Source of the DNA: Candidatus Melainabacteria bacterium SSGW_16
GTDB lineage: Bacteria; Cyanobacteriota; Vampirovibrionia; 2-02-FULL-35-15
Length of the DNA stretch: 64,000 nucleotides
Direction of reading: 5' to 3'
Assembly: GCA_004769085.1 (NCBI GenBank)
Contig: DUDS01000028.1
Coordinates: 3,914-67,913, forward strand
In this document: piece after piece, positions 742 through 51,244 of the stretch
Layout: every line of letters starts with the position of its first letter
Position numbering within the stretch: position 1 is the stretch's first letter
Made by a program: the position numbers and the translations under genes
Notes under the pieces: generated by a model
The model's database searches: none
Told to the model about the DNA's origin: nothing
The model's input: only the letters and a program-made list of their open reading frames with translations

Positions 742-848
742 AAGATTTTATCCGATTTATTCGGTAAAATCTTGATTATGGTAGATGAAGCATCAAATAA
801 ACGCACTCAGCAAAGCCCGACAAGCGACGAAGGAGCAAGGAGGGCGGT
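742..848 (+). repeat. Family-1 structured intergenic repeat, copy E (5' hairpin plus purine-rich core)
   Basis: Hairpin gattttatccgatttattcggtaaaatc (744-771). Core cactcagcaaagcccgacaagcgacgaaggagcaaggagggcggtg aligns with the copies at 12147, 22128, 36912(-), 38295(-) and 40709. Confidence 0.75.
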
Positions 849-2924: not shown

Positions 2925-4373
2925 TTACACCAAAACCCTCAAAGCCTTTTCAATTCTGGATTTTACTTTTTCTTTTCCAAGAAGTGAAATTATAAGCCCT
3001 AAATCAGGACCTTTGTTTGAACCAGAAAGAGCTACTCTAAGAGGCCAATAAAGATCTTTCCCTTTTACACTTAGCCCTTTCCCGATTTCGTCCACGACTA
3101 ATTTACATGCATGAGGATCACTGAAATTAAGTGAGTTTAAAACCTGGATAACCTTATCAAAGATTTTCCTTGCATTTTCACCAGAGAGAATCTTCTGATT
3201 TTCGCTTGATCCTAAATCAAATTTATCATCAAAGAAAAATCTTATTAGCCCAGGCAATTCATCAAGTTTATTCAGCCCTGATTTTACTAAATCAATCATC
3301 TGAAAGATTTGTTCTTTTGGATAGATTGAAAGATCTAGCTCTTTTTCAAGAAATCTTTTTGAAAGATCAAATATCTCCTGTGTTGTTTTTTCTTTTATGT
3401 AGTGATTATTAAACCAGTGTAATTTAGGCAGATCATAAACAGCAGGACTTTTACTTATTCTGTCCAGGCTGAATTCATTAGTTACATCATTCAGTCTGAA
3501 TATTTCGTCTTCCGGATGATCTGGTCTTGTCCAGCTCATATGTACAAGATAATTTGCAAGTGCTTCAGGAAGATATCCTTCTCTCTGATATTTATCTATG
3601 TTTGCTATATCACCGTGTTTTCTTTTACTGAGTTTTTCCCTGTCATGGGTAAAAATCAAAGGTGCATGACCAAATGACGGAACTTCAAACCCCAGAGCCT
3701 GAAATATTGGTATTTGTTTTGCTGTATTATGCAGATGATCATCACCACGGATAACATGGCTGATTCTCATATCTCCGTCGTCAATAACTACAGCAAAATT
3801 ATAAAGTGGTATTCCATCGCCCCGCATTATCACAGGATCTCCGCCTAAATCATTTGTGTTTACTGAAACATATCCTCTTATTTCGTCGTTCCATTTTATT
3901 TCTGTGTTATCAGGAAGTTTAAACCTGATTACTGATTTTCTGCCTTCATCTAGAAACTTTTTCTTTTGATCTTCAGTCAGGTTCCTGTGTCTGTTGTCGT
4001 ATTTTTCAGGCATCCTGGCTGCTCTCTGTGATTTTCTAAGTGCGTCCAGTTCTTCTGTAGTAGCAAAACAATTATATGCTTTCCCTTCGTCTAAAAGCTT
4101 TTGAGCAGACTTTCTGTATAAATCAAGCCTTTCACTCTGGTAATAAGGGCCTTCATCAAAGTTTATTTGTAGCCATTTAAACCCGTCTAAAATTTCTTTT
4201 GTGTATTCGTCTTTGTTTCTTTGCTGGTCTGTATCTTCAATTCTTAAAATAAATTTTCCTTTATGTTTTTTACTAAAAAGGTAATTATATAAGGATGTCC
4301 TTACAGTACCAAGATGCAGGCTTCCAGTTGGGCTAGGTGCTATGCGAACCCTGACTTCTTTTTTATCTGACAT
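2925..4373 (-). CDS. gltX: glutamyl-tRNA synthetase
   Basis: RIAPSPTGSLHLGTVRT (HIGH-type motif), KLSKRK (KMSKS-type motif) and a class I GluRS-like layout over 482 aa. Confidence 0.95.
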   Translation of the reverse strand: MSDKKEVRVRIAPSPTGSLHLGTVRTSLYNYLFSKKHKGKFILRIEDTDQQRNKDEYTKEILDGFKWLQINFDEGPYYQSERLDLYRKSAQKLLDEGKAYNCFATTEELDALRKSQRAARMPEKYDNRHRNLTEDQKKKFLDEGRKSVIRFKLPDNTEIKWNDEIRGYVSVNTNDLGGDPVIMRGDGIPLYNFAVVIDDGDMRISHVIRGDDHLHNTAKQIPIFQALGFEVPSFGHAPLIFTHDREKLSKRKHGDIANIDKYQREGYLPEALANYLVHMSWTRPDHPEDEIFRLNDVTNEFSLDRISKSPAVYDLPKLHWFNNHYIKEKTTQEIFDLSKRFLEKELDLSIYPKEQIFQMIDLVKSGLNKLDELPGLIRFFFDDKFDLGSSENQKILSGENARKIFDKVIQVLNSLNFSDPHACKLVVDEIGKGLSVKGKDLYWPLRVALSGSNKGPDLGLIISLLGKEKVKSRIEKALRVLV

Positions 4374-7131: not shown

Positions 7132-7764
7132 CTAATTTGAATTTGGTGTTTTAACCTCTGAGAGAAAATCGCTTAATAGTTTTTCCTGGACCTCTTTGTT
7201 TTTTGAAATCTGTGTCAGTGCTTCCTCTGCAAGTTTAATAGCAGTAGTACTTGCAGATTTCCTGATACTTTCAACTGCTTCATCCTTACTGGAAGCAATC
7301 TCTTTCTTTACTTTTTCCTTTAGTCTTTCTATTTCTTTTTCTGTTTCTTCTTCCATTTGTTTTTTTATGGTGGTTGCTGAAACCTTTGCCTCTTCTTTTA
7401 TTTGTTCAATTTCTTTAAGGATATTTTTTGTTTTGTGTCTTACCTGTTCAAGCTCTCCTTCTGCTTTTAACCTTGTATTTTTTGCATCTTCAAGCTCTTT
7501 ACTGATTTGTGATTTTCTTTGATCAAGTATTTTTGGCATGAATTTATTCCCAAGATAAATCATTGCAATTGCAAGGATTATTACATTCAGAAGATCTGAC
7601 TGAACAAGGATCTGCCACCATCCTAGAGTATGTTCATGTGCAGCTTCATGTCCTTCTGATGAAAATACGCTAGTAGGAGTGAATATAAGGGGAATAACAC
7701 CAGATAAAAACAAAAGACTGTTTTTTAAGTTTTTAATGAGACTTAACAAGTGTTTTCTCCTCAA
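7132..7764 (-). CDS. atpF: F-type ATP synthase b subunit
   Basis: Single TM segment (LLNVIILAIAMIYLGNKF) followed by a long charged coiled coil, at the position before delta. The N-terminal ~40 aa extension and 32-nt overlap with b' make the start uncertain. Confidence 0.8.
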   Translation of the reverse strand: MRRKHLLSLIKNLKNSLLFLSGVIPLIFTPTSVFSSEGHEAAHEHTLGWWQILVQSDLLNVIILAIAMIYLGNKFMPKILDQRKSQISKELEDAKNTRLKAEGELEQVRHKTKNILKEIEQIKEEAKVSATTIKKQMEEETEKEIERLKEKVKKEIASSKDEAVESIRKSASTTAIKLAEEALTQISKNKEVQEKLLSDFLSEVKTPNSN

Positions 7765-8182
7765 TCCCCAGAATTTTATTTGTGATTAGTTCTGTAAGTG
7801 TTTTTACCTTTGTTTCAATTTCTTTTAGTGACTTTTCTTTCTCTGTATAGATTTGTTTTATGGCATTTTCTTTTTCCTTGGTCAATTCAGCTTCAAGCGC
7901 AGATATTTTTTCACTTCTTGTTTTGTTTGCAGCATTTATAATTTGCTGGATAATACCCTGTGCATCAGTTCTGGCTGATTTCATCTGATTTTTATATTCC
8001 TCAAGTTTTTTTTGTGCTTCGTCTGTTGATTCTTTTGCATCTTTATATGCATCTTCAATCAGTTTCTTTCTTTTTTCAACGATTTCTCCGACAGGCTTGT
8101 AGAGAGTAAGATTTAAAAGATAAATAAAAACCAGAAAACTAATGGCAAATAAAACCAGAGTAAAATTTATCTCAAGTAACAT
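7733..8182 (-). CDS. atpF2: F-type ATP synthase b' subunit
   Basis: N-terminal TM segment (LVLFAISFLVFIYLLN..LYKPV) plus coiled coil. It is a second b-like gene between c and b, as in the cyanobacterial-type c-b'-b-delta-alpha order. Confidence 0.75.
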   Translation of the reverse strand: MLLEINFTLVLFAISFLVFIYLLNLTLYKPVGEIVEKRKKLIEDAYKDAKESTDEAQKKLEEYKNQMKSARTDAQGIIQQIINAANKTRSEKISALEAELTKEKENAIKQIYTEKEKSLKEIETKVKTLTELITNKILGIEEKTLVKSH

Positions 8183-11950: not shown

Positions 11951-12146
11951 AAGCAGCTTATAACAGATTTTTTGGCTTCTATTATCTGCGATTAAAACGG
12001 AAGCATCTTACAAATTCAGTTAAAATGCCTGATTTTTAGGAATAGATGACTAAAATGTTTTATGTTTGTCTATAATTCAAAATGAGAGAGGTTTAACCTA
12101 CTGCCTAGCTTATGCAACATTTCCAAACAGACTATTTATGCGGAAA

Positions 12147-12248
12147 GATTTTGACGATTTATTCGTCAAAATCTGTAGAATGTTACAAGTGGTCGGCCGT
12201 GAATACTTTGCAAAGCCTGACAAGCGAAGAATGAGCGAGGAAGGCGGT
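12147..12248 (+). repeat. Family-1 structured intergenic repeat, copy A
   Basis: gattttgacgatttattcgtcaaaatc hairpin, ctgtagaatgtta box, then core tactttgcaaagcctgacaagcgaagaatgagcgaggaaggcggt. It lies 62 nt upstream of the rel start. Confidence 0.75.
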
Positions 12249-12310
12249 AGGAAATAACAGGTTCAATGATGAATCCTTGAAATTTAACATGAAAGATAGC
12301 TGTCTGAACA

Positions 12311-20806: not shown

Positions 20807-22075
20807 ATGTCTTCTTTTACCTTTATTTTCCCAAATATAATCTTAGCCCTGGTTTATGTTTTGATTACTCTTGAAAAGCTTCCCAGAGTTGTTATTGCAC
20901 TCCTTGGGGCAAGTGTTTTAATTATTTTTAAATCTATAACTCAGGAAGAAGCGTTTCATTATATAGATTTTAATGTAATTTTTCTCCTTGTCGGGATGAT
21001 GATACTTGTAAATATCCTTAGAGAAACCGGGGGAATAAGATGGCTTGCAATATGGACAGCAAAGAGAGTAAACGGCAGCGGTGTTTTGTTAATGATTTAT
21101 TTTTCACTGCTTACTGCTTTTATTTCTGCATTTCTGGATAATGTAACCACTGTAATTCTTCTTGGTTCTGTAACAGTTGCAATATCAAGAGACCTTAAAA
21201 TAAATCCAATACCATATCTTGTAAGTCAGGCAATAGCTTCAAATATTGGAGGAACAGCAACTTTAATAGGAGATCCCCCAAATATAATGATAGGTTCTGC
21301 TGCTGGACTTGGATTTAATGAGTTTATTCTTCATCTAGCACCTGTTATTTTGCTTATTTTGCCGGTTACGATTTTGACACTTTATTTAATTTATAGAAAT
21401 CAACTCACTATACCTGAATCAGCAAGGAAAGAACTAAATAAAATATCGCTTAAGGGAATAATTACAAATAAATCTCTTCTCAAAAAATCACTTATTGTAA
21501 TTATGCTTGTAGTAATTACTTTTTTCTTTCACCGTCTGCTTGGGCTTGAAGCAGGAACTATTGCTATTGCCGGGGCTTCTGTTCTTTTAATTTTTGAAAA
21601 TAAAAAACATATATGGGAGGATGTGGAGTGGACTACAATTTTCTTTTTTATAGGATTATTTATTATCGTGGGAGCTGTTGAGAAGGTAGGAACAATCAAT
21701 TATCTGGCTGATCTTATTTTTAAATTAAGTAAAGGCAGTTATGAATTTACTGTACTTGGGGTTTTATGGATGTCAGGGTTTCTTTCGGCAATAATTGACA
21801 ACATTCCTTATACTGCTACTATGATTCCTCTTATAAAACATCTTGGAGATCATTACAGTAATTTAAATCCTTTATGGTGGGCGCTTTCTCTTGGAGCATG
21901 TCTTGGGGGAAATGGAACTCTTATTGGAGCAAGTGCAAATATTGTAATAGCAGATATGGCAAGCAAACAAGGTTATAAAATTACTTTTTTAGAGTTTTTC
22001 AGGGCAGGTTTTATAGTAATGATTGAGTCTCTTTTAATTTGTAGTTTATATATATGGTTTAGGTATTTAAATTAG
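20807..22075 (+). CDS. ArsB/NhaD-superfamily (CitMHS-like) anion permease
   Basis: About 10-12 TM segments, with LDNVTTVILL and NIGGTATLIGDPPNIMIG motifs repeated in the C-terminal half (GGNGTLIGASANIV). Confidence 0.8.
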   Translation: MSSFTFIFPNIILALVYVLITLEKLPRVVIALLGASVLIIFKSITQEEAFHYIDFNVIFLLVGMMILVNILRETGGIRWLAIWTAKRVNGSGVLLMIYFSLLTAFISAFLDNVTTVILLGSVTVAISRDLKINPIPYLVSQAIASNIGGTATLIGDPPNIMIGSAAGLGFNEFILHLAPVILLILPVTILTLYLIYRNQLTIPESARKELNKISLKGIITNKSLLKKSLIVIMLVVITFFFHRLLGLEAGTIAIAGASVLLIFENKKHIWEDVEWTTIFFFIGLFIIVGAVEKVGTINYLADLIFKLSKGSYEFTVLGVLWMSGFLSAIIDNIPYTATMIPLIKHLGDHYSNLNPLWWALSLGACLGGNGTLIGASANIVIADMASKQGYKITFLEFFRAGFIVMIESLLICSLYIWFRYLN

Positions 22076-22127
22076 TGTAAATGTTCAGGCATAAAGCAGA
22101 AGAACAAATAAACCACCTGACGAGGAA

Positions 22128-22228
22128 GGTTTTGTCCAATTTATTTGGCAAAACCGTAAACTGTTAAATTTAACATATATTAAGTGCACTATGGAAAGGT
22201 GGCGAAGCGAATTATGAGCGAGCCACCT
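22128..22228 (+). repeat. Family-1 structured repeat, divergent copy F
   Basis: ggttttgtccaatttatttggcaaaacc hairpin (same tttat loop as copy A), then cactatggaaaggtggcgaagcgaattatgagcgagccacct. It retains both helices with compensatory changes. Confidence 0.55.
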
Positions 22229-22241
22229 GTGTAAAAAGAAA

Positions 22242-25200
22242 TTAATTTCCTGTAACTGTAACCAGCGGGCTGCAAGTTCCTGTAGTAGTGTTACAAAGTT
22301 TAACCTGAATTCCAGACTGAAAGCTTGAAGTAAAATAAGTAGCTCTATCATATGAAATAGGTCCGTTATTAAAACAGAGTGCTAAAGAAGGATGCATATT
22401 TGTACCAGCTGTATCTTTTAACACAGCACAGTTGCTTCCACCTAGTGAGGTCGCACTGAAATCTATAGTAACTGTACTTCCACTTATTGAAACACTGTTT
22501 AATGTTATTGTTTCTGTTGTTGTTACAGCCACCAGGCTACTGCAACTATTTGAATTGTTTTGATTGCATAACTTAACTTGTGTTCCACTTACAAGGGCAG
22601 GAGTGAAATCAGATGTAGGAAAAACAGAGTTAAAAGAGCCGACTCCGCACAGATTAGTTGACTTTAGTATGTTATTGCTTGCATCTTTGACAAGTAAGCA
22701 TGTGTAAGGATCGACACTATAAGATATTGTTGCACTTGCTCCATTAATTGAGACACTGCTAAGTGTAATCGTTTCAGATGCTCCACAACCAACTGTACTG
22801 TAGGTTTGTCCTGATGGGCAGGTGCATTTGTTTTGTGAATCATATGTAGCACTTCCGGCACATATACAAGCATCGGATCCTTGTGAAGCTTCTCCAGGAT
22901 TGCATGGTCTTTCGCATCCATTAAATGGATCATATGTTCTTCCATTGGTACAACTACATGAGCCGCCTGAACCACCAAACGTTCCATATGGACCACAGCT
23001 ACATGGATTTGACGAGTTATATCCTTCTCCTATATAACACATTCTTCTACAAGAGTTTGTGTAATTTGAATTATGATAGATAGAACCATTTGAACATTTG
23101 CAAGAACCATTTCGTCCAGTTGGTTGTGCACCGCCACCGCATGTGCAACCTGTTGCACTTTGTCCGGGGACACATTCAACAGTTCCTGTCACTGTAACCA
23201 GCTGACTACAAACATTGTAGTTATTTCCATGACATAGTTTTACTTGAATCCCTGACTGAAAACTTGAATTGAGCTCTGAAACAGATACTGTTGTTGAATT
23301 ATTTCCTGAAGTACAGAAAAGGTTCTGAGTGTGCAGTATTACATTGTTTGAGTTAAGTAAATGAGCACATGTAGAGAAGTTCTTATTATAAGTTACTGTT
23401 GCACCATTTCCACTGATTGATACGCTGCTCAGTGTTACTTGATCTTGGGAGGTAGGAGTAGGGGTCGGTGTTGGAGCAGTATTACTTATGGTAACAAGTG
23501 AGCTGCATATGGTGCTATCGTTTGATTTGCAGATTTTAACTTGGTCACCAACAATTACTGTGTGTGGGAACGTAGATATAGGTGCATTTACAGTTGTCCC
23601 CGAGGTACTTCCACAAAATAAACTGTAAAGAGTAACACCGTTTATATCCTTGAGGTATGCGCATGAACCATCATTAGGAAAACTAGTGCTAAAGGTAACT
23701 GCAAGATTACTACTACTTATAACTGCACTTGTTAGAGTTATTGTTCCTTGAGTTGAGGCAGGACATGTTGCAAGCGTAACTGCACAAGTGTTGTCAGAAC
23801 ATCTGATTGGTGTAGCTGGAGGACAGGAAATATTAGAACATTCAGCTTGTGTAACCCTGCAAGTTCCATCTGAACACTTGAATGGATAACTGGATGGGCA
23901 AGAATTTGTCCCTCCGCTATCACATGGAATAGGAGATTTAGGAGGCAGACCAACATAGCTAGCAGCAGGAGGAGGACCATTTGGACAGACAGCTACACAA
24001 CTGTTATTAGAGAAGTAAGGTAGTCCTGTAGGACAAATACATTGTGCTTCTCCTTTTCCATTTGAATTTGGCAACATGTTACCACTGCAGTTTGTAGTAG
24101 TAACTGAAGAGCAACCATATTCTTTTGTATAAGCACCGCTATTTGTTGGACAAGTACAATATCCGCTGAAACTATATCCTCCACCAGAAGGATTGCAGGT
24201 ACACCCAGCAGTACCTACAGATATACCTGGAGAACAATAATTTGTTGAGCTTGTAGTACATTTTCCAGCTTGATCAGGATAACTTTTATCTGAGCATAAA
24301 CAAGCTAACATTGGTGAATAGTTACTACCAGGTGCAGCACTACCATATGTTTGTGGGTAACCAGCTGTTAATCCTTCAGGACATTTTGCTACACAAGTAG
24401 CACTAAAACTAATAGGCTTATCATCAGGACATTTACATGGCGGATTATTACTTGGATTTGTAATATAAGGATATGGGCAATTTGTTGTAGAACTACCACA
24501 ACCATATTCTTTTGTATAGGTTTGGTTTGAAGATGAACATTTACAAAAACCTGAGTCAGAATATGCTCCGGGTCCACATGTGCAGCCTGTTGAAGTCGAT
24601 ATTCCAGGAGAGCAATAATTTGTACTGTAAGAACCGCACCCTTGGGATGAATAAGCACCGCTGTATCCCGTTGGGCATTGGCAAGGAAGTACTAGTCCGG
24701 ATGTATAACCTGGGCTTGCACATGAACAGTTGTCTTTAGCTGGTATTTCACCGGCTTCACAATTTCTCTGATTACTATTTGTACATGGAATAGGAGATTT
24801 TGGTGATAAATTCAGACTAGCAGAAGCTGGTGGAGATCCATTTGGACAACTTGCTATGCATTTTACATTATCCCAGTAAGGTAATCCTGGAGGACAAATA
24901 CACTGAGCTTCACCTGGAGTATTGTTAGGCAACATATTGCTGCCACATCTATTTTCTTTTTTACATCCATCAGGGCCTGATATAGAACCATCTTTATTGC
25001 ATCTGCAGATACCATTTTGATCTTTATATTGATCTGTCCCACATTCGTTAGTTGGTATACATTTACCACTACTGTCTTTTTTAAAACCAGGAGGACAGTT
25101 ATTTGTGATTACTATTCCAAAACACTGATTGCATTCAGGAGGTAGGTCTGATCCTGTTATATCATTGAAATCTGATGATCCAAATCCTGATGTTGGGTAT

Positions 25201-27761: not shown

Positions 27762-30188
27762 TTATTTTTTATTTCCTTTGGAACTAGGTAAATTATTATT
27801 AGGCAGAGCTGGTTGTGTAATAGCAATGGAATTATTACCATTGTTTAAAGGGTTCTGATTATTATTTCCTGAATTATTGCCAGGTAAAACTGGTGGCGGT
27901 GGTAAAACTGGTTGAGTAATAGCAATGGAATTATTACCATTGTTTGAAGGATTCTGGTTATTGTTTCCTGAATTATTATTAGGCAAAGTTGGTTGAGTAA
28001 TAGCAATGGAATTATTACCATTGTTTGAAGGATTCTGGTTATTGTTTCCTGAATTATTATTAGGCAAAGTTGGTTGAGTAACAGTTATGGGATTAAAGTC
28101 ATCATCATCATGTGAAGGGTGATTATTGTTTCCTGAGTTGTTATTAGGCAGAGGTGGTTGAGTAACAGTTATTGGATTAAAGTCATCATCGTCATCATCA
28201 TGTGAAGGGTGATTATTGTTTCCTGAGTTGTTATTAGGCAGAGGTGGTTGAGTAATAGCAATGGGATTAAAACCATTACCATTGTTTGAAGGATTCTGAT
28301 TATTGTTTCCTGAGTTGTTATTAGGCAGAGGTGGTTGAGTAACAGTTATGGGATTAAAGTCGTCATCGTCATCATCATGTGAAGGGTGATTATTATTTCC
28401 TGAGTTGTTATTAGAGCCATGGTTGTCATCATCGTCGTCATCATCATCATTGTGTGAGGTGTGATGATCGTTATTATTAGAGCCATGGTTGTCATCATCG
28501 TCGTCATCATCATCATTGTGTGAGGTGTGATGATCGTTGTTATTAGAGCCATGGTTGTCATCGTCGTCGTCATCATCATCTAATGAAGTTTCTATGGGGG
28601 CTGGCTGAGCAGTTAATTTAGGATTCTTTAATGATGTCCCTCCGCGGGGTGAATTCCTAACATTTTCAACTAAGGCTGAAATAAATGAAGGATCATAGCC
28701 ATTTCCTGAAGCAGACTGGTTTATTATTACATTTGGATTATGTGAAATAAAATCAGGATCGTTCCAGACTGGGCCATTACCGTAGGAAACAGTTGTATTT
28801 CCATTAGTTGCCTGATTATTATTTCCATTGTTGTTTCCATTATTGTTGTTAGTTGAGTCAGATTCATTTGGTTCATCAACAGATATTTCTACAGAAACAT
28901 TTTCGACTGGAGTCTCATTTATTACAGCATCATTGCTTGCAACGTTATTTATATCATCTGCTTCAATATCTGCTTCACTTATAAGAAAAAGTCCTCTGAA
29001 AATCGGACTTTCTTCTCCAGATTCATTTGTAATTCTAATCCTGAATCTTGCAGTGTCAGTGCTTTCTATTTTGAAGGTTTCAAATGAAGGTAAACCATCT
29101 CCTGATGTCTCTGTTTCTGCAAGTAAAGTATTTTTTGAATCTTCAAATGCTGAGTAAATGAGAACCTTTTGTTTAAAATTTTCTGCAAAATAAAGTCCAA
29201 GTGTACATCCGTTTATGCAGGTATTGTCTGGAGGAGAAAGATAAAATTCAGCACCATTAAATCCGTCTGGACCGGACTGTCCTTTTATTACCTTAAAACT
29301 GTATGAGTCTGCTACCCTGGATGAAACAAATTCATATCCTGTTGAAGTTGTATCTTCTATACTTCCCAGACTAATGTCTATAATATCCTTATCGTACGTA
29401 TCTTCTTCAGCATCTGGTGACCATACTATTGCATTATAATTTTCTCTAAACAGATTATTAAGAGATAACGGGGCTTCAACTTTAGTTCTGCCGTCGTAAT
29501 TTACTGGGAGGCTTTTTTCTTCTCTCGGAGTTCCCCAGAATAATCCACTTACTACTGGTTTTGTGTTACTGGCTGTTTTCAACTCAATTGTTGCTTTGCC
29601 ACTAGTACCTTTTGGTGGTCCTTTAATTAAAAGATTCAGATAGCAACCTTTGTTGTACTTTGTATTTTGAATATAAACAATATCTCCAAGTGAATCCAAA
29701 GCGTATGAAAGTTTAATTCTGACTTGCTGTTCCGGGATTTTGCTTACAAAGGGGTCGATATAAATACTTAGCGGATACCATACTCCAAAATTGCTGTTAT
29801 TTTCTAATTCAAGATTTATTTCTGTGGATTCACCTGGCAAAGAAGAGGTAATATAAAAACCATTTCTGGAATTTTTAGATGATTCAAGTGTGCTAATTCC
29901 AATTAAACTTGTCTGCTCAATAATGCCGTTGTATTGAACACTTTTTACAAAGCTAGGAAGATTGTGAAGATTATCACTCTGCCCTGGAATCCAGTAATAA
30001 GAGTATTCTGATGACCATGCTCCATTTAGTTCACAGTTGAGCTTTTGAATATCTTCTTTAATGTAGTCAGTGTTAAGGTAGATTGTATTGGAAACCGTTT
30101 CTGCTGAAAATGCCTGATTTGGGCCCAAAAGTAGTATAAAAACTGTTAACAGCATTTGTGTAATGCAAATTAAGAACCTGCTATTCAT
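27762..30188 (-). CDS. exported protein with globular N-terminal half and Asn/Asp/His-rich tandem-repeat C-terminal half (808 aa)
   Basis: Signal peptide ending AFSAE. The C-terminal half has repeats NNNDHHTSHNDDDDDDDDNHGS (x3), FNPITVTQPPLPNNNSGNNNHPSHDDDDDD and NSIAITQPTLPNNNSGNNNQNPSNNGN. Confidence 0.8.
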   Translation of the reverse strand: MNSRFLICITQMLLTVFILLLGPNQAFSAETVSNTIYLNTDYIKEDIQKLNCELNGAWSSEYSYYWIPGQSDNLHNLPSFVKSVQYNGIIEQTSLIGISTLESSKNSRNGFYITSSLPGESTEINLELENNSNFGVWYPLSIYIDPFVSKIPEQQVRIKLSYALDSLGDIVYIQNTKYNKGCYLNLLIKGPPKGTSGKATIELKTASNTKPVVSGLFWGTPREEKSLPVNYDGRTKVEAPLSLNNLFRENYNAIVWSPDAEEDTYDKDIIDISLGSIEDTTSTGYEFVSSRVADSYSFKVIKGQSGPDGFNGAEFYLSPPDNTCINGCTLGLYFAENFKQKVLIYSAFEDSKNTLLAETETSGDGLPSFETFKIESTDTARFRIRITNESGEESPIFRGLFLISEADIEADDINNVASNDAVINETPVENVSVEISVDEPNESDSTNNNNGNNNGNNNQATNGNTTVSYGNGPVWNDPDFISHNPNVIINQSASGNGYDPSFISALVENVRNSPRGGTSLKNPKLTAQPAPIETSLDDDDDDDDNHGSNNNDHHTSHNDDDDDDDDNHGSNNNDHHTSHNDDDDDDDDNHGSNNNSGNNNHPSHDDDDDDFNPITVTQPPLPNNNSGNNNQNPSNNGNGFNPIAITQPPLPNNNSGNNNHPSHDDDDDDFNPITVTQPPLPNNNSGNNNHPSHDDDDFNPITVTQPTLPNNNSGNNNQNPSNNGNNSIAITQPTLPNNNSGNNNQNPSNNGNNSIAITQPVLPPPPVLPGNNSGNNNQNPLNNGNNSIAITQPALPNNNLPSSKGNKK
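27790..28590 (-). repeat. in-frame coding tandem repeats (81-90-nt and 66-nt units)
   Basis: The gttgagtaa unit starts at 27911, 27992, 28073 (81-nt period), 28157, 28247 and 28334. The agagccatgg unit starts at 28413, 28479 and 28545 (66-nt period). Confidence 0.85.
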
Positions 30189-36890: not shown

Positions 36891-36911
36891 ACCCTTGTTT
36901 TAAGAAATAGT

Positions 36912-37027
36912 GTAATTACTCACCGCCCTCCTCGCTCCTTCGTCGCTTGTCAGGCTTTGCAAAGTGCTTACGGTCTACTATTTATAACATTCTACAGATT
37001 ATGACCCGCCCAAGGCGGATCATAATC
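36912..37027 (-). repeat. Family-1 structured intergenic repeat, copy C
   Basis: The reverse complement reads gattatgatccgccttgggcgggtcataatc-tgtagaatgtta-...-cactttgcaaagcctgacaagcgacgaaggagcgaggagggcggtgagtaattac. It lies just 3' of mraY. Confidence 0.75.
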
Positions 37028-37056
37028 TTTCCTTGCTGAGAGTTATATTTCCACTT

Positions 37057-38019
37057 TTACAAAGCACCTGAGTAATTATGGAATAGTATTACTCCTCCTA
37101 AAATCACAAATACAAACTGAATTGTAAAGAACAATCTGACAATATTTTTTTCACTTACTCCGCAGAGTTCAAAATGATGATGCAAAGGGGCCATTTTAAA
37201 AATTCTTAGATCTTTTCCGATTAATTTTCTTGAGGTTTGTGAGCTGATAACCTGTAAGATTACTGATAATGCCTCAATAACTGGAATTGTTGCAAAAAAC
37301 GCCAGAAAAATCTCAGATCTGCATACTATTGCTATTGAACCTACTGCCCCACCTATAGCCAGACTGCCAGTATCTCCCATAAATACTTTTGCAGGATTTT
37401 TATTGAAATACAAAAAACCACATAGTGCTCCCATAAAAACAATCACAAAGTATGAAAGGCTGATTTTTCCAACACCTTCAAGCAGGATAAATAATCCAAG
37501 AAAACTAGCAATGCTTACACTTGTTAGGAGACCGTCCAGTCCGTCTGTAAGATTATATGAATTTGTTGAACCTGCAATTATAAAAAAGACCCATATTAAA
37601 TAAATAACCCAATTACCCTCCTTATAGAAAAAACAGATAACAATACTTGTCACCAGCTGTATGAACAGCTTAGACCAGCCAGAAATACCTTTGTTTTGTT
37701 TTTTTCTTACCTTCAGATAGTCATCTATAAAACCAAGAAATCCCATTAATATGGTCACTCCAAAAACAATTACAAAATCAAGATTTTGAAAGCTTTTTCT
37801 GGTTAGAAGTACAAAACAGGAAAAAATCACTACAGGAATTAAGAAAATTAATCCTCCAATAGTTGGAGTGTTTGATTTTTTCTTTATATGATCCTTTGGT
37901 CCATCTGTTCTAATGGTTTGTCTAATATGAAATGACTGCAGGAGCTTTATTAAAGAATTTCCAATTAGTAGTGTTATTCCAAGCGAGAGGAAGAAACAGA
38001 TAATGAGTTCATATTTCAT
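37057..38019 (-). CDS. mraY: phospho-N-acetylmuramoyl-pentapeptide transferase
   Basis: K..TPT.GG, N..NLTDGLDGL, MGDTGSLA.GG and APLHHHFE motifs in a 10-TM layout. Confidence 0.95.
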   Translation of the reverse strand: MKYELIICFFLSLGITLLIGNSLIKLLQSFHIRQTIRTDGPKDHIKKKSNTPTIGGLIFLIPVVIFSCFVLLTRKSFQNLDFVIVFGVTILMGFLGFIDDYLKVRKKQNKGISGWSKLFIQLVTSIVICFFYKEGNWVIYLIWVFFIIAGSTNSYNLTDGLDGLLTSVSIASFLGLFILLEGVGKISLSYFVIVFMGALCGFLYFNKNPAKVFMGDTGSLAIGGAVGSIAIVCRSEIFLAFFATIPVIEALSVILQVISSQTSRKLIGKDLRIFKMAPLHHHFELCGVSEKNIVRLFFTIQFVFVILGGVILFHNYSGAL

Positions 38020-38277: not shown

Positions 38278-38294
38278 GAGCTAACCTTTTTATT

Positions 38295-38399
38295 GCCGCC
38301 TTCCTCGCTCATTCTTCGCTTGTCAGGCTTTGCAATGTACATTTCTAGGGTACCCCTTGTTGCAGCATTCAGATTTTACCGAATGAATCGGATAAAATC
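38295..38399 (-). repeat. Family-1 structured intergenic repeat, copy D
   Basis: The reverse complement reads gattttatccgattcattcggtaaaatc-...-tacattgcaaagcctgacaagcgaagaatgagcgaggaaggcggc. Its 3' end lies 17 nt upstream of the yggT start. Confidence 0.75.
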
Positions 38400-38638
38400 T
38401 CCCTGTATAAATAGTCTAATTTGATATTTTGACTTAGGTAGGTAATAACAACCATCTCTTTATTTTAAGACAAAGTTAAGTTCTTATAAAGACTTTCAGC
38501 CGTAGAAGTATGCAATTGTACACCCTCTACGGCTGAAATTTAGATAAGCAGCATGCTTTTTATTATCTTCTTCTCTTTTTGGCTGCTTTTTTGCTTGATT
38601 TTTTCTTTGTTTTCTTTGCCATTATTTTCTCCTTTCCT

Positions 38639-39711: not shown

Positions 39712-39757
39712 ACATTTTCCGTCAAGTATGTCTATTGCTGGTATTAACTCAAAAGTC

Positions 39758-39789
39758 GTAATTACTCACCGCCTTCCTCAGTAATTGCC
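39758..39789 (-). repeat. Family-1 repeat, truncated copy G (3' end only)
   Basis: The minus strand reads ggcaattactgaggaaggcggtgagtaattac and shares ggcggtgagtaattac with copy C. It abuts the hisA 5' end. Confidence 0.5.
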
Positions 39790-39803
39790 AAAAGTCATCT
39801 TGT

Positions 39804-40580
39804 TCATTTTTTTAATAATATTTCCCTGTCAGCCTGTATCTGAGGGTAAATATGCTCAAACTTGCAATCTTCATTGATCTCATTAAAAGTTATAACATTT
39901 AATCTCACATCTTTTGTCCAGTTAAGCAGAGATTCATATTTTGCAATTGGATCAAAAGCATCGGTAAGTATATCAAGATTGTTAATGAAAAAGGAATCAG
40001 GTTTTGTATTTAAGAAATAAAATATTCCCTTTAATCTTTTTATGTTTCTTGTAGAAATAATTTTTGACAGATTGTACTTTAATGATTTGAAACAATCTTC
40101 TTTAGTGCTTTGATCAGCAGATGTTAGTAGAACAGCACTAATACAAGGAGCTTTCGGATCAATAAAAAAATCAACAGTAAAAATTCCTAAAGGCATTTTT
40201 TTAATTAAACCCTTTTGTAATTTGTAAATATTGCAATGGGTTATATTCCCAAGAGTTTTCCATAAAACTAACTGTCTGTTATAAAGTCCTGATTGGTGCA
40301 TATAAAGGAAAAAATCTTTGAGTATATATTGGATTGTTCTGAGCAATATGCCTGGAGTCAATCCTTCCTTCTCTTCTGTGAAGATTAAATTTTCAATTCC
40401 TTCTCTAATCTGACTTGTGTTAAAGGATCTTGGTGACTGGGTAATCTTTTCTGTTGTAAGGCCAAATGGCTTTTTCTGAGAGATTTTAATTTTATTTATT
40501 TCTTCTCTTGAAATAAGGAAATTGTCAAACATATAATTTAGGTTAGCAGATACAAAAAAATCATAATAGATTACATGCAA
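39804..40580 (-). CDS. hypothetical protein (258 aa; start may be Met17)
   Basis: Long clean ORF with no motif recognised. Confidence 0.55.
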   Translation of the reverse strand: MHVIYYDFFVSANLNYMFDNFLISREEINKIKISQKKPFGLTTEKITQSPRSFNTSQIREGIENLIFTEEKEGLTPGILLRTIQYILKDFFLYMHQSGLYNRQLVLWKTLGNITHCNIYKLQKGLIKKMPLGIFTVDFFIDPKAPCISAVLLTSADQSTKEDCFKSLKYNLSKIISTRNIKRLKGIFYFLNTKPDSFFINNLDILTDAFDPIAKYESLLNWTKDVRLNVITFNEINEDCKFEHIYPQIQADREILLKK

Positions 40581-40708
40581 ATCCGGGTTTAAAGAACGTG
40601 TTATCTAAACGGTGTTATCATGTTATTGAGCCGTTAATATTACAAAATAATATGAGCTACTGCTTACCTAACTGCTGTAATTTTATAGTTAACTCACTTG
40701 TAATGAAA

Positions 40709-40812
40709 GGTTTTGGTCCGCCCAAGGCGGAGCAAAACCTGTAGAATGTTAGGAATCAGACCGTAAGTACTTTGCAAAGCCCGACAAGCGAAGAATGAGC
40801 AAGGAGGGCGGT
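40709..40812 (+). repeat. Family-1 structured intergenic repeat, copy B
   Basis: ggttttggtccgcccaaggcggagcaaaacc-tgtagaatgtta-...-tactttgcaaagcccgacaagcgaagaatgagcaaggagggcggt. It ends 13 nt before the tmk-like ATG. Confidence 0.75.
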
Positions 40813-40825
40813 AGGTAGAAACAAC

Positions 40826-41516: not shown

Positions 41517-41588
41517 GCCGATGTAGCTCAGTGGTAGAGCAGCTGTTTCGTAAACAGCAGGCCGTGGGTCCGACTCCCACCATCGGCT
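41517..41588 (+). tRNA. tRNA-Thr (anticodon CGT)
   Basis: Hand fold: acceptor GCCGATG/CATCGGC, D arm GCTC-AGTGGTA-GAGC, anticodon arm GCTGT-TTCGTAA-ACAGC, variable AGGCC, T arm GTGGG-TCCGACT-CCCAC, discriminator T. No encoded CCA. Confidence 0.85.
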
Positions 41589-41597
41589 TTTTTTATA

Positions 41598-41671
41598 CCG
41601 CTCGTTTCGCACGAATGCTCAACTCGCTTTTCAGTCACGGCGCTTCTTGGTGAGTGAATCACACAAGAAGC
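41598..41671. repeat. Family-2 repeat, copy 1
   Basis: The core ccgctcgtttcgcacgaatgctcaactcgctt is followed by the hairpin gcttcttggtgagtgaatcacacaagaagc. Confidence 0.65.
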
Positions 41672-41723
41672 TTGTATGTTAGAACTCCACTGACAACTAA
41701 TATAATAAAATTTGATTATAATA

Positions 41724-41796
41724 TCGCTCGTTTCGCACGAATGCTCAACTCGCTTGTAGATATTAGGCGCATTTGCCGAGTGAATCGGACAAATGC
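41724..41796. repeat. Family-2 repeat, copy 2
   Basis: The core tcgctcgtttcgcacgaatgctcaactcgctt (identical to copy 1) is followed by the hairpin gcatttgccgagtgaatcggacaaatgc. Confidence 0.65.
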
Positions 41797-41820
41797 TTAT
41801 TCCCTTTGTAAAATTAAATC

Positions 41821-43407
41821 ATGCTTACACGGAGACAATTTAATAAATTATTGCTTGCGTCGATTTTATTACCATCTTATGGATGCACTTTTCGTAGAAA
41901 TATAAAATATATTCCAAAGACTTTAAGACTAAATCTAGGATATGAGCCGGATAGCCTTGACTGGGCAAGAGCGACAGATTCATATTCGTTTGATGTAATT
42001 GCAAACATAATGAGCGGGCTTACTAAATATAATAATGATCTCCGTTCAGTACCTTCCCTGGCTCAAAACTGGAAAATTTCACCTGATGGGAAGATCTATA
42101 CTTTTTTTCTTGATAAAAATGCTAAATGGTCAGATGGAGTGCCTGTTCTTGCCAGAGATTTTGAATATGGCTGGGAGAGAATTCTAAACCCGCTTACAGC
42201 CGGACCTTATGCATATTTGCTTTACCCGGTTAAAAATGCTCAGAAATACAACAGTGGATTGATTACTGACCCAAACCAGCTTGGCGTTCGGACATTAAGT
42301 GACTCAGTCCTTCAGGTTGAGCTTGAAAAGCCGCTGTCATTTTTTTTAAATCTTACTTCCTGGTGTGTATTTTTCCCTCAACGGAAAGATATTATTCAAA
42401 AATATGGTGATGACTGGACAGAACCAGGGAAACTTGTGTCATGTGGTCCATTTAAACTTGATAAGTGGCAGCATGAATATAAAATTACGCTTATAAAGAA
42501 TGATCATTATAAAAATCCTGAGCCTGCACTTGAAAAAATAAAATATTATATAGTCTCTGAACAATCAAGCGCATTTTCCCTTTACCTGAATGATGAACTT
42601 GATTTTATTGACTCAAGATCAATACCTGTAAGTGAGATTGAAACAGTAAAGAGAAAAAAAGAAACAGTAATTCATCCCTTATTGAGAGGTACTTACATTG
42701 GGTTTAATGTTGAAAAGCCTCCATTTAATAACAGACTTGTAAGGGCAGCATTCAGTTCTTCAATTGACAAAAATGTTTTTCCAAAGATTTTGGGGAGAAG
42801 TGAAATTCCATCAAGCACATGGATTCCTCCAGGATTGACGGATTTTTACTCTCCTGACATTGGAATCTCCTATAATATTGAAAATGCAAGGAAACTGCTT
42901 GCTGATGCAGGTTATCCTGATGGCAGAAATTTCCCTAAGGTGAGTTTGTATTTTCCTACCAGAGAAGATGCAAAACTTCTTTCAGAAGCAGTACAATCTC
43001 ACTGGAAAAAAGCATTGAATATTGAAGTGGAGGTTGTTAATCTGGAGTGGAAAGTTTTTCTGGATACTCTTCATAAAGATCCCCCGCACTTGTTCAGGCT
43101 TAGCTGGGGTGCAGACTATCCTGACCCCGATACATTCATGACCCTTTTTACAAGCGATTCAGGGAATAATCATGGTAGATGGAAAAGTAAATCATATGAT
43201 GAAATTGTTAATGTGGCTGCTTCAGAAATGAATCTTGGCAGGAGAAAATCACTTTATAGAAAGGCACAAAAGATTCTTCTTGAAGAAGAGGTAGGAATTG
43301 CGCCTCTATTTTTTAACACACAGATTCTGCTTAATAAGCCATGGGTTAAAAACTTTGAATTCAACTCGATGGATTTAGTGTTTTGTGAAAAGATAATAGT
43401 TACCTAG
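41821..43407 (+). CDS. ABC transporter substrate-binding protein, family 5 (oligo/dipeptide-binding type)
   Basis: Lipoprotein-like N-terminus (LLLASILLPSYGC), then SLDWA..TDS, W.DG.P..A.DF and GWGADYPDP-type (SWGADYPDPDTF) motifs. No permease or ATPase genes are adjacent. Confidence 0.85.
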   Translation: MLTRRQFNKLLLASILLPSYGCTFRRNIKYIPKTLRLNLGYEPDSLDWARATDSYSFDVIANIMSGLTKYNNDLRSVPSLAQNWKISPDGKIYTFFLDKNAKWSDGVPVLARDFEYGWERILNPLTAGPYAYLLYPVKNAQKYNSGLITDPNQLGVRTLSDSVLQVELEKPLSFFLNLTSWCVFFPQRKDIIQKYGDDWTEPGKLVSCGPFKLDKWQHEYKITLIKNDHYKNPEPALEKIKYYIVSEQSSAFSLYLNDELDFIDSRSIPVSEIETVKRKKETVIHPLLRGTYIGFNVEKPPFNNRLVRAAFSSSIDKNVFPKILGRSEIPSSTWIPPGLTDFYSPDIGISYNIENARKLLADAGYPDGRNFPKVSLYFPTREDAKLLSEAVQSHWKKALNIEVEVVNLEWKVFLDTLHKDPPHLFRLSWGADYPDPDTFMTLFTSDSGNNHGRWKSKSYDEIVNVAASEMNLGRRKSLYRKAQKILLEEEVGIAPLFFNTQILLNKPWVKNFEFNSMDLVFCEKIIVT

Positions 43408-47458: not shown

Positions 47459-47569
47459 GACAAAATACTTTTCAATTGTACTGAGTTTACTTACTATCTG
47501 CCAATCTGTTTCAATTATTAGTGTGATTCCTGACACTTTTTTACATAAATTTTTTCTCATTAAACTAAT

Positions 47570-48244
47570 ATGAACAGTCGTTCAGCAGCAAGAGAAATTG
47601 TAGTTTTGGCCCTCCCGCAGTTGCCAAAAGATAATATTAAGCTTACAAATACTGATTTAAAAGCAATTATCCTTGCATTAAGCAGGTCTTTAAGTGATTA
47701 TGCAAAAAAAAACATATCTTCTGTTTCTGCTGATTTGCAAAAGATAGAGAGTTTTTTGTTAAATGCTGAGATTGAACATCCTGATAATGAAAAACATGTA
47801 ACCCAGATTGAACCTGTTTTAATTCCTGATACTGCTGTCTTGCGGAAACAAGTTAATGCACTTCAGCAGGCAGCAACTGAATTGTTCAATGTTTTAGAAA
47901 TTCCTGAGCTTATAACTCATACCGATCAGGAACAAACCCATGAGTATGTAATATTTATTTTAAATAAATATATTGAAAACAAAGAAAAAATAAATGAAAC
48001 AATTGAGCAGGCTGCCCAGAGGAGAAAAAGTGACAAAAAATGGAAACTGGGAAGAATGGTCAGGCTCGATCGTGACATTCTCAGAGTGGCGGCTACAGAA
48101 CTTTTATTTATAACTGATACCCCGACTGAAGTAATCTGTGATGAAGCAGTAAAAATTGCAGATAAATATGGCGGAGATGAAAGCAAAAAATTTGTAAACG
48201 GTGTATTGAGAGATATTGTAGAGCTTTCAAGAGTGAAGTCTTAG
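47570..48244 (+). CDS. nusB: transcription antitermination factor NusB (long form)
   Basis: ARE..V..L at the N-terminus. The C-terminus reads RLDRDILRVAATELLF.TDTP..V.CDEAVKIADKYGGDES.KFVNGVLRDI. The 224-aa length comes from a central insertion. Confidence 0.85.
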   Translation: MNSRSAAREIVVLALPQLPKDNIKLTNTDLKAIILALSRSLSDYAKKNISSVSADLQKIESFLLNAEIEHPDNEKHVTQIEPVLIPDTAVLRKQVNALQQAATELFNVLEIPELITHTDQEQTHEYVIFILNKYIENKEKINETIEQAAQRRKSDKKWKLGRMVRLDRDILRVAATELLFITDTPTEVICDEAVKIADKYGGDESKKFVNGVLRDIVELSRVKS

Positions 48245-51186: not shown

Positions 51187-51244
51187 AAACTTTGTAAATG
51201 GTGTTTTAAGAGATATTGTTGAACTCTCAAGGGTTAAGTCATAG
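51185..51244 (+). pseudogene. orphan duplicate of the nusB 3' end (19 codons plus stop)
   Basis: It encodes KNFVNGVLRDIVELSRVKS*, against NusB KKFVNGVLRDIVELSRVKS* at 48185-48244. It is offset by exactly 3000 nt in the same frame, with 47/57 nt identical and every difference at a third codon position. Confidence 0.85.

Follow-up and report, generated by a model that had tools for sequence, protein, structure and literature searches.

What is the structured repeat that recurs along a 64,000-nt stretch of Candidatus Melainabacteria bacterium SSGW_16 (contig DUDS01000028.1, positions 3,914 to 67,913; hereafter the window), and why does it lie so often at the start of a gene? The Melainabacteria phylum is the non-photosynthetic sister group of the cyanobacteria. 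A preliminary description of the window had reported seven copies of an element of about 100 nt, with covarying helices and a Shine-Dalgarno (SD)-like 3′ end, and had proposed that it is a mobile 5′ leader or cis-regulatory RNA. Our reading, drawn from comparative sequence analysis, is that the repeat is very probably a ~165-bp non-coding MITE (miniature inverted-repeat transposable element) of groundwater Melainabacteria, moved in trans by a DDE transposase of the IS66 family (ISBst12 group).

The seven copies are indeed present. The consensus of a 38-nt core matches exactly at 810-847 (+), 12210-12247 (+), 36923-36960 (-), 38296-38333 (-) and 40774-40811 (+), five matches versus none in 100 dinucleotide-preserving shuffles; the window G+C content is 34.9%. 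These five canonical copies (E, A, C, D and B, in this order) are joined by a diverged copy, F, and by a 31-bp mini element, G, and a repeat finder, too, groups these loci (as families D10 and D19 and inverted pairs I1-I8). With a covariance model (CM) built from 26 copies, all canonical copies score 130-184 bits and copy F scores 79.7.

How far does the element extend, and where else is it found? When the copies are aligned with long flanks, similarity starts ~50 nt 5′ of where the preliminary description had placed it, and the alignment gives a full element of ~165 bp (~165-170 nt). The coordinates first proposed do mark real copies; they cover only the 3′ two-thirds of each, and miss the 5′ terminal inverted repeat. 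The layout, from 5′ to 3′, is a 5′ arm GTTACTGCCTAGCTAATGTAAC, a conserved linker (..AAACTATTTAT..), a hairpin H1, a TGTAKAATGTTA box, a spacer, the core GCACTTTGCAAAGCCYGACAAGCGAAGAATGAGCRAGGARGGCGG, and a 3′ arm TAGGYAAAAAC. The element has no coding capacity. A 19-base core pattern, scanned against a single genome of each species, gave 27 loci, 24 of them from metagenome-assembled genomes (MAGs) of groundwater 'Candidatus Melainabacteria' and the other three chance matches in unrelated phyla. A metagenome scan with a second core pattern produced at least 108 stretches and, from these, 100 CM matches. The metagenome matches listed, pooled with the earlier copies, amount to 105 unique full insertions, and the pairing statistics below use 93 distinct sequences.

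The element ends are imperfect 13-bp terminal inverted repeats, 5′-GTTACTGCCTAGC ... GGTAGGCAAAAAC-3′ (that is, GTTACTGCCTAGC against GTTWTTGCCTACC once the 3′ end is reverse-complemented); a second subfamily ends in GTAATTACTCAGC ... GGTGAGTAATTAC, or GTAATTACTCAGC against GTAATTACTCACC as inverted repeats. Over the 93 sequences the repeats are complementary in 64.9% of cells, and what RNAalifold presents as a terminal helix is nothing other than these repeats. Arms from one element pair better than arms from different elements (p=0.0008) because they are its two terminal inverted repeats. Directly outside them lie target-site duplications. A perfect flanking 8-mer is found in 40 of the 105 insertions among the matches listed, versus 4.1% of shuffled (non-cognate) pairings, and the mean longest exact flank repeat is 6.37 nt in cognate and 5.04 nt in non-cognate pairs (permutation p<5e-5). 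The offsets of the duplications are sharply modal, ending exactly before GTTACTGCCTAGC and beginning exactly after ..GGCGGTAGGCAAAAAC.

As an example, consider copy A in the 5′ region of rel, on the forward strand throughout. With boundaries set at the modal duplication offsets, the full element spans 12097-12258 (CM match 12093-12260, 170.8 bits). The left duplication AGGTTTAA (12089-12096) agrees at 7 of 8 positions with the right one, AGGTTCAA (12259-12266). The 5′ inverted repeat CCTACTGCCTAGC (12097-12109; family consensus GTTACTGCCTAGC) is followed by H1 (12146-12174, AGATTTTGACGA / TCGTCAAAATCT), a hairpin predicted by RNAalifold and ~99% paired over the 93 sequences, and by a -10-like TAGAAT box (12176-12181). 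The purine-rich core (12210-12247) holds two helices, P1 (12215-12218 / 12242-12245) and the P2 hairpin (12224-12236), and the 3′ inverted repeat GGTAGGAAATAAC (12246-12258) includes the SD-like GGTAGG.

If the repeat is mobile, related genomes should offer sites without it. Four related contigs were reached via homologues of the window tmk that are 80-84% identical (an exact-protein look-up of the window tmk product returned no record). All four keep the gene order WecG, pyruvyl transferase, PatA_N, glycosyltransferase-4, YggT, HisA, a 240-aa gene and Tmk, and a CM search of them found no element. Since synteny is kept without the copies, sites B, C, D and G are empty sites in these relatives. 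Reading the junctions directly confirms that the four copies are missing at the orthologous sites of the syntenic genomes: site B is empty in L029, L030, L031 and L032, site C in L029, L030 and L032, and site D carries no copy in L029, L030 and L032. Copy C gives the glycosyltransferase a new C-terminus, and in-silico removal of copy G restores an intact HisA N-terminus, MNKMTFELIPAID. The converse case also occurs. The window is empty at 47560-47570, a site that is filled in nzgw191 (L019, 2948-3116, -) and that in L128 (~7700-7860, -) retains only a 50-nt 5′ remnant. Finding one site in three states (full, remnant and empty) indicates that copies decay by internal deletion.

Short, bounded by inverted repeats, flanked by target duplications and folded, the repeat is a MITE as these elements are defined (PMC3049150). 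It thus belongs to a described class, and it is not a new kind of regulatory RNA. The preliminary description had not recognised it as a described element; that holds for the family, as we found no literature description of it or of any MITE in Melainabacteria (only a broad survey of insertion sequences came up), and does not hold for the class.

Which transposase could move it? In a search for solitary repeats, GTTACTGCCTAGC adjoins a 75-aa open reading frame (ORF) in L090 (same sequence as L125), a Melainabacteria-like contig. Another MITE copy interrupts this ORF, and once that copy is taken out the reading frame yields 114 aa, the C-terminal fragment of a transposase of the IS66 family (Pfam PF03050, E=7.9e-13, 48.9 bits with the cut-off at 23.1; NCBIfam transpos_IS66, E=7e-26). 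The stop codon of this fragment falls within GCTAGGCAGTAAC (..GCT AGG CAG TAA C), the exact reverse complement of the MITE repeat. A complete-length relative is found in L143, a 1544-bp IS66-type element with DUF6444 and DDE_Tnp_IS66 domains, frameshifted, with ends GTTACTACTCAGC / GTTACTACTCACC and an 8-bp duplication AAGTTATT; the low-GC contig L145 holds a further fragment with the terminus GCTAAGCAGTAAC.

Among described elements, ISDge4, of the ISBst12 group of the IS66 family, is bounded by the repeats GTGACTACTCAGCA / GTAACTGCTCAGCA, with a direct repeat of 8 bp (PMC12898284), and ISPpa5a and ISPpa7, also IS66, have 8-bp repeats too (PMC3281130). The MITE repeats, GTTACTGCCTAGC or GTAATTACTCAGC, are nearly those of ISDge4 (GTAACTGCTCAGCA / GTGACTACTCAGCA) and of L143 (GTTACTACTCAGC / ..CACC), with the same asymmetry between a left ..AGC and a right ..ACC. 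Compared with ISDge4, ISPpa5a, ISPpa7 and L143, the MITE shows both the GTAA/GTTA..CTCAGC type of inverted repeat and the 8-bp duplication. It differs in carrying no transposase, and its interior (H1, P1 and P2) is unlike the subterminal sequence of the insertion sequence (IS) copies examined. We call it an IS66-type MITE because its repeats match IS66 (ISBst12-group) ends, the 8-bp duplications agree, and the transposase remnant ends in the exact repeat. Together with the inverted repeats, duplications and empty sites, this partner bears out the mobility that the preliminary description had suspected.

The relatives of the 114-aa fragment are mostly remnants, and a search with it for a full-length transposase returned 6 short matches only. 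Among the related loci, inverted-repeat pairs 0.2-6 kb apart comprise a single spurious pair (L048) with no transposase, and a search for orphan element halves revealed no IS, only a 5′ half in L007 adjoining a kdpB-like gene. A solo repeat in L008, located in a glyoxalase-like ORF, was set aside as a probable chance match. In L007 itself, two degenerate copies lie head-to-head at 7179-7441 with a common palindromic 5′ arm GTTACTGCCTAGCTAATGTAAC, and one of them is the 5′ half, stopping 25 nt before the kdpB-like start.

A different mode of transposition could be imagined, in which the repeat is a REP/RAYT or IS200/IS605-type hairpin element (a PATE), carried in the form of single-stranded DNA by an HUH (tyrosine) transposase that recognises H1 and P1/P2. 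The two conserved imperfect hairpins would fit, an excess of G-U pairs (described below) is compatible with folding of one strand, and the H1 module is also present in a second, different small element family. To our knowledge, elements of these types have neither target duplications nor terminal inverted repeats. Here we see clear 8-bp duplications and 13-bp inverted repeats, and membership in either group fails on these two features, since such elements make no target duplication. Moreover, the ends match IS66 DDE elements, and the surroundings of the copies showed no Y1 or RAYT gene. We consider this mode highly improbable.

The IS66-type MITE leaves one property to be accounted for, the internal hairpins. 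The preliminary description had given the state of each pair in the window, and every one of these readings is correct. The P1/P2 module includes tandem G-A pairs. P1 reads GCCU/AGGC in copies A and D, GCCC/GGGC in copies B and E, GCCU/GGGC in C, and GGUGG/CCACC in F. P2 is GCGA-N-NNN-N'-GAGC, closed by A-U in A, B, D and F and by C-G in C and E; in copy F it reads GCGAAUUAUGAGC. The covariation extends to the ~105 independent insertions among the matches listed. On the 93 distinct sequences, in an alignment fitted to the model and gathered with a retrieval pattern that fixed the 5′ strands of P1 and P2, 99.2% of the cells of H1, P1 and P2 are paired, versus 28-47% in slid controls. Both sides have changed at 11 of 18 pairs (148 cells), which none of 500 shuffles reaches; for H1 alone, double changes are found at 8 of 11 pairs. 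At the fourth pair of P1, 46 sequences have C-G, 37 have U-A and 3 have U-G, and the closing pair of P2 is A-U in 72, G-C in 11 and C-G in 4. Many of the double changes are common to subfamilies, and therefore represent few independent events. Diverged members hold a hairpin at the P1/P2 position with a different sequence (GGUGG/CCACC or GCCUG/CAGGC), and in further diverged forms the tandem G-A has become Watson-Crick pairs, or an unrelated long hairpin takes the position. Single mismatches are asymmetric on the sense strand, with 20 G-U versus 5 A-C (p=0.004), an excess that might also arise from a C-to-T bias linked to transcription. For copy B, the fold is predicted at -54.7 kcal/mol (z=-3.9). 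A hairpin GTTAC..GTAAC in the 5′ arm finds no support (70.9% paired versus 68% in shuffles).

Could the hairpins be by-products without function? Templated (quasipalindrome) repair, or else gene conversion from copy to copy, could maintain the complementarity of their arms, while the orientation of the insertions with respect to genes, taken up below, would come from oriented target recognition by the transposase. The double changes common to subfamilies speak for this, as does an asymmetric motif in the flanks. In 44 well-defined insertions (loci L027-L132 and window copies A, C and E), an asymmetric TTAA(G/T) lies directly 5′ of the 8-bp duplication, with A at -2 in 36 of the 44 and no mirror motif 3′ of the duplication. 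Both a general gene-start motif and an upstream stop codon were checked as explanations of the TTAAG flank, and both were rejected. On the other side, the Y-R pair of P1 toggles between C-G and U-A independently of a neighbouring polymorphic site, the closing pair of P2 takes three forms (A-U, C-G and G-C), and templated repair leaves the preserved non-canonical G-A/A-G positions unexplained. Nor can TTAAG alone put 41% of the insertions at most 15 nt from a start in sense, because it has no positional peak upstream of start codons. We regard a purely by-product origin as unlikely.

The position at gene starts is the second property to be accounted for in the IS66-type MITE. An ORF of at least 80 codons starts between -20 and +15 nt of the element 3′ end in 43 of the 105 insertions among the matches listed; in the same interval at the 5′ end, antisense, this is so in 5 of the 105. 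The 3′ end is oriented to start codons, as had been claimed. Several duplications include the ATG itself (TAATTATG, AAAGAATG, GAATAATG and CTCAATGT), and copies E and G interrupt hisI and hisA within their first codons. The preliminary description had opposed a MITE-like repeat to an element with orientation bias and covariation. Each of these properties is found here; the opposition between them was mistaken, as they are true together.

The genes downstream are unrelated housekeeping genes without a common pathway: RelA/SpoT, HisI, YggT, Tmk, QueF, CstA, 5-FTHF ligase, M16 peptidase, class I aminoacyl-tRNA synthetase, CCA-adding enzyme, amidase, LpxA, DnaJ, Acs, HemL, HolA and DJ-1. A metabolite riboswitch is ruled out because these genes are unrelated. 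A search of the window at Rfam 15 gathering scores passes only a tRNA, and a permissive Rfam search with copy A (E<=10) gives nothing credible.

How would a MITE come to lie at gene starts in one orientation? An insertion at a start codon would shift the native upstream signals by about 165 bp. The AAGGAGG..GGCGGTAGGTAG at the 3′ end, placed 3-20 nt from the element end, could then serve as a portable leader or ribosome-binding site that replaces the displaced region, and the internal -10-like box might stand in for the displaced promoter. We propose that only the sense orientation, with AAGGAGG..GGCGGTAGGTAG before the ATG, would keep the gene expressed, so that selection would leave sense copies while antisense insertions would be lost; we infer that the orientation bias reflects survival, and not targeting. 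The element may also be co-transcribed with the downstream gene as a structured leader. Over 516 gene starts (from the window and low-GC loci), the SD signal upstream of the ATG is weak, and the 5′ ends of TATAAT and TAAAAT peak at -14 to -12, that is, a -10 box ~6-7 nt before the ATG, which suggests that some of the genes in these Melainabacteria lack a leader. Given weak SD use and such leaderless-type genes, a native promoter may read through the element and give a structured leader. The hairpins themselves might be kept since propagating master copies need them, or since they make the transcript harmless or stable, or through some use by the host.

This last option can be taken further. 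The MITE might have been co-opted by its host, with P1/P2 and H1 acting in the mRNA as a cis-regulatory leader (for instance through a bound protein, or by governing how accessible the start region is), and with the housekeeping copies kept by host selection. The 99% paired helices with their many compensatory changes speak for it, as do the excess of G-U over A-C on the sense strand, the hairpins that diverged members retain at the P1/P2 position with changed sequence, and the folding z-score. So does the rel site. There are 2 usable pairs of orthologous filled sites, one of them clearly orthologous, window copy A versus L026 at rel. There, identity is 84% over the element and 38/38 in the core, versus ~50% in the flanking intergenic DNA and 57.5% at the third codon positions of rel. 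The other pair points the opposite way, with 62% identity overall (86% in the core), and the element is below its flanking coding sequence. Further points against co-option are the lack of a pathway common to the downstream genes and of an Rfam match, the location of copies C and F between convergent genes, and the orthologous copy in L128 that has decayed to a 50-nt remnant. Core conservation, too, has alternative explanations: it is inflated by ascertainment through the core pattern used for retrieval, and gene conversion among dispersed copies, along with the transcription-linked C-to-T bias, could yield conservation and a G-U excess without function. We judge co-option by the host to be unlikely, and the cis-regulatory RNA or 5′ leader of the preliminary description stays a conjecture, given the unrelated downstream genes, the lack of an Rfam family and of a canonical internal promoter, and the decayed orthologous copy. 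A broader version, for which we would give low odds, would have the transposon deliver a structured 5′ leader (H1, the G-A-rich P1/P2 and the SD-like tail) to housekeeping start codons, co-opted across Melainabacteria; genes without SD or leader would become leadered, and rel, his, tmk and others would come under shared RNA-level control, for example by one RNA-binding protein.

The IS66-type MITE that survives by sense insertion has observations to answer for as well, and we gather them here. A core identical at 38/38 positions, at a site where neutral positions are ~55% identical, is not predicted by a purely selfish element. The TTAA(G/T) motif hints that oriented target choice could contribute to the orientation bias. 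A transcript of the whole element is predicted to pair the 5′ inverted repeat with the SD-like 3′ repeat, and the weak SD use in these genomes leaves a ribosome-binding role of the 3′ end tentative. A promoter scan of copies A and B finds no canonical sigma-70 site inside (spacer 16-18 nt). The TTGACG noted earlier in copy A is present, and lies 19 nt upstream of TAGAAT; with that spacer and a negative scan, the two form a non-canonical promoter-like pair, and we reject an internal sigma-70 promoter. As for the driver, neither the window nor ~0.96 Mb of related loci contains a full-length IS66 transposase with these ends, the low-GC (0.33) Melainabacteria-like contigs show transposase fragments only, and the complete-length IS of L143 comes from a higher-GC organism. 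As no intact partner is found in the window or the 0.96 Mb, present-day mobility is putative.

Two other groups of dispersed repeats invite comparison. Correia elements of Neisseria (CREE/NEMIS) carry promoters, fold as RNA and affect the expression of neighbours (PMC3184786, PMC3049150). They are also MITEs, of 100-160 bp with inverted repeats, often 5′ of genes and co-transcribed (PMC3184786, PMC3049150), and their inverted repeats are 26 bp (PMC3049150), versus 13 bp in the Melainabacteria element. There is no sequence similarity between the two, and the host phylum and parent IS family differ. Correia elements duplicate a TA target, whereas 8 bp are duplicated here. With 13-bp repeats and an 8-bp duplication, the element is an analogue of Correia elements only. 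Neisseria REP2 and the Borrelia IR are dispersed repeats directly upstream of ORFs, with two stem-loops and promoter, ribosome-binding site and start signals (PMC3184786). In apparent mode of working they are the closest likeness, with promoter and ribosome-binding activity putative in the Melainabacteria element. REP2 has no terminal inverted repeats and a co-regulated gene set, while the Melainabacteria element has inverted repeats and duplications and lies at unrelated housekeeping genes. It is not a member of the Correia or of the REP2/Borrelia IR groups.

The family adds a well-defined MITE, with a probable IS66-type driver, to a little-studied phylum, and accounts for a repeat that could otherwise be mistaken for a new riboregulator. 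It is also a natural experiment in how mobile DNA rewrites translation-initiation regions, landing on or in start codons with sense-only survival; through such insertions hisI and hisA have each gained a new N-terminus, and one glycosyltransferase a new C-terminus. In the annotation of these MAGs, start-codon calling will be led astray by ~165-bp insertions of this kind at gene starts.

The gene contexts first described for the other window copies (hisI, yggT, hisA and tmk, in addition to rel, with C and F at gene 3′ ends) are all correct. Copy E (694-858, +; CM match 690-860, 153.1 bits) lies within the first ~9 codons of hisI, flanked by a direct repeat AATGAAAT at 8/8 or GAAATAGA/GAAATTGA at 7/8; an old in-frame ATG can be read in the sequence 21 nt upstream. 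The diverged copy F (22077-22240, +; CM match 22073-22242) lies between the convergent genes of a CitMHS transporter and a 1744-aa ORF, and its variant type is also present in L046, L043 and L039. Copy C (36912-37079, -; CM match 36910-37083) occupies the last codons of the glycosyltransferase-4 gene, with the duplication ACTATTCC / ACTATTTC. Copy D (38285-38449, -; CM match 38283-38453) ends ~13 nt upstream of the yggT ATG, or ~5 nt by its CM match. Copy B (40658-40823, +; CM match 40656-40824, 139.9 bits) is directly upstream of tmk, and its duplication ATATGAGC / ACATGACC spans the tmk ATG.

The mini element G (39758-39788, -), in codons 6-7 of hisA, is internally deleted to both inverted repeats plus GAGGAAGGCGG, and is flanked by a perfect 8-bp duplication GACTTTTG (39750-39757 and 39789-39796). 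At 39750-39807 (-), hisA is broken after codon 6 by the mini element and its duplication, a 39-nt in-frame insertion with two in-frame TGA codons. HisA is therefore either a pseudogene or restarted from a codon that is not canonical, and an ATT 6-9 nt past the GGAAGGCGG of the mini element is apparently the next start in frame that could be used.

The second small repeat family mentioned above shares only the H1-type hairpin (GGATTTGTCCGRTTYAYYCGGCAAATCC) with the MITE. The window has two tandem copies of it, at 41585-41726 (-) and 41735-41851 (-), adjoining a tRNA at 41517-41588 (+). Elsewhere it is found in L009 (3012-3143, 3362-3497 and 3993-4131), L001 (7521-7663), L002 (7397-7535), L018 (218-349) and L086 (610-762). 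In these five loci a second hairpin, with a covarying stem and a conserved CUUGU loop, comes after the H1-type hairpin, and then TATATAAAAAAATG directly at an ORF start; the two window copies differ, terminating in AAGCGAGTTGAGCATTCGTGCGAAACGAGCGGTATAA. One of the L009 copies is flanked by a ~38-nt direct repeat (3310-3348 and 3498-3536) that duplicates the last codons of a 68-aa ORF (..MKEYFDKGVGLI).

Other repeats in the window are coding. A 60-nt direct repeat, 83% identical (48185-48244 and 51185-51244), forms the 3′ ends of the adjacent genes 47570-48244 and 48445-51186, so that both proteins share the same ~20 terminal residues (..KFVNGVLRDIVELSRVKS). The second of these genes, a 913-aa ORF, has long internal tandem repeats in ~150-nt units (48686-50787), and an 808-aa ORF at 27762-30188 (-) has long internal tandem repeats in 66-99-nt units (27791-28601).

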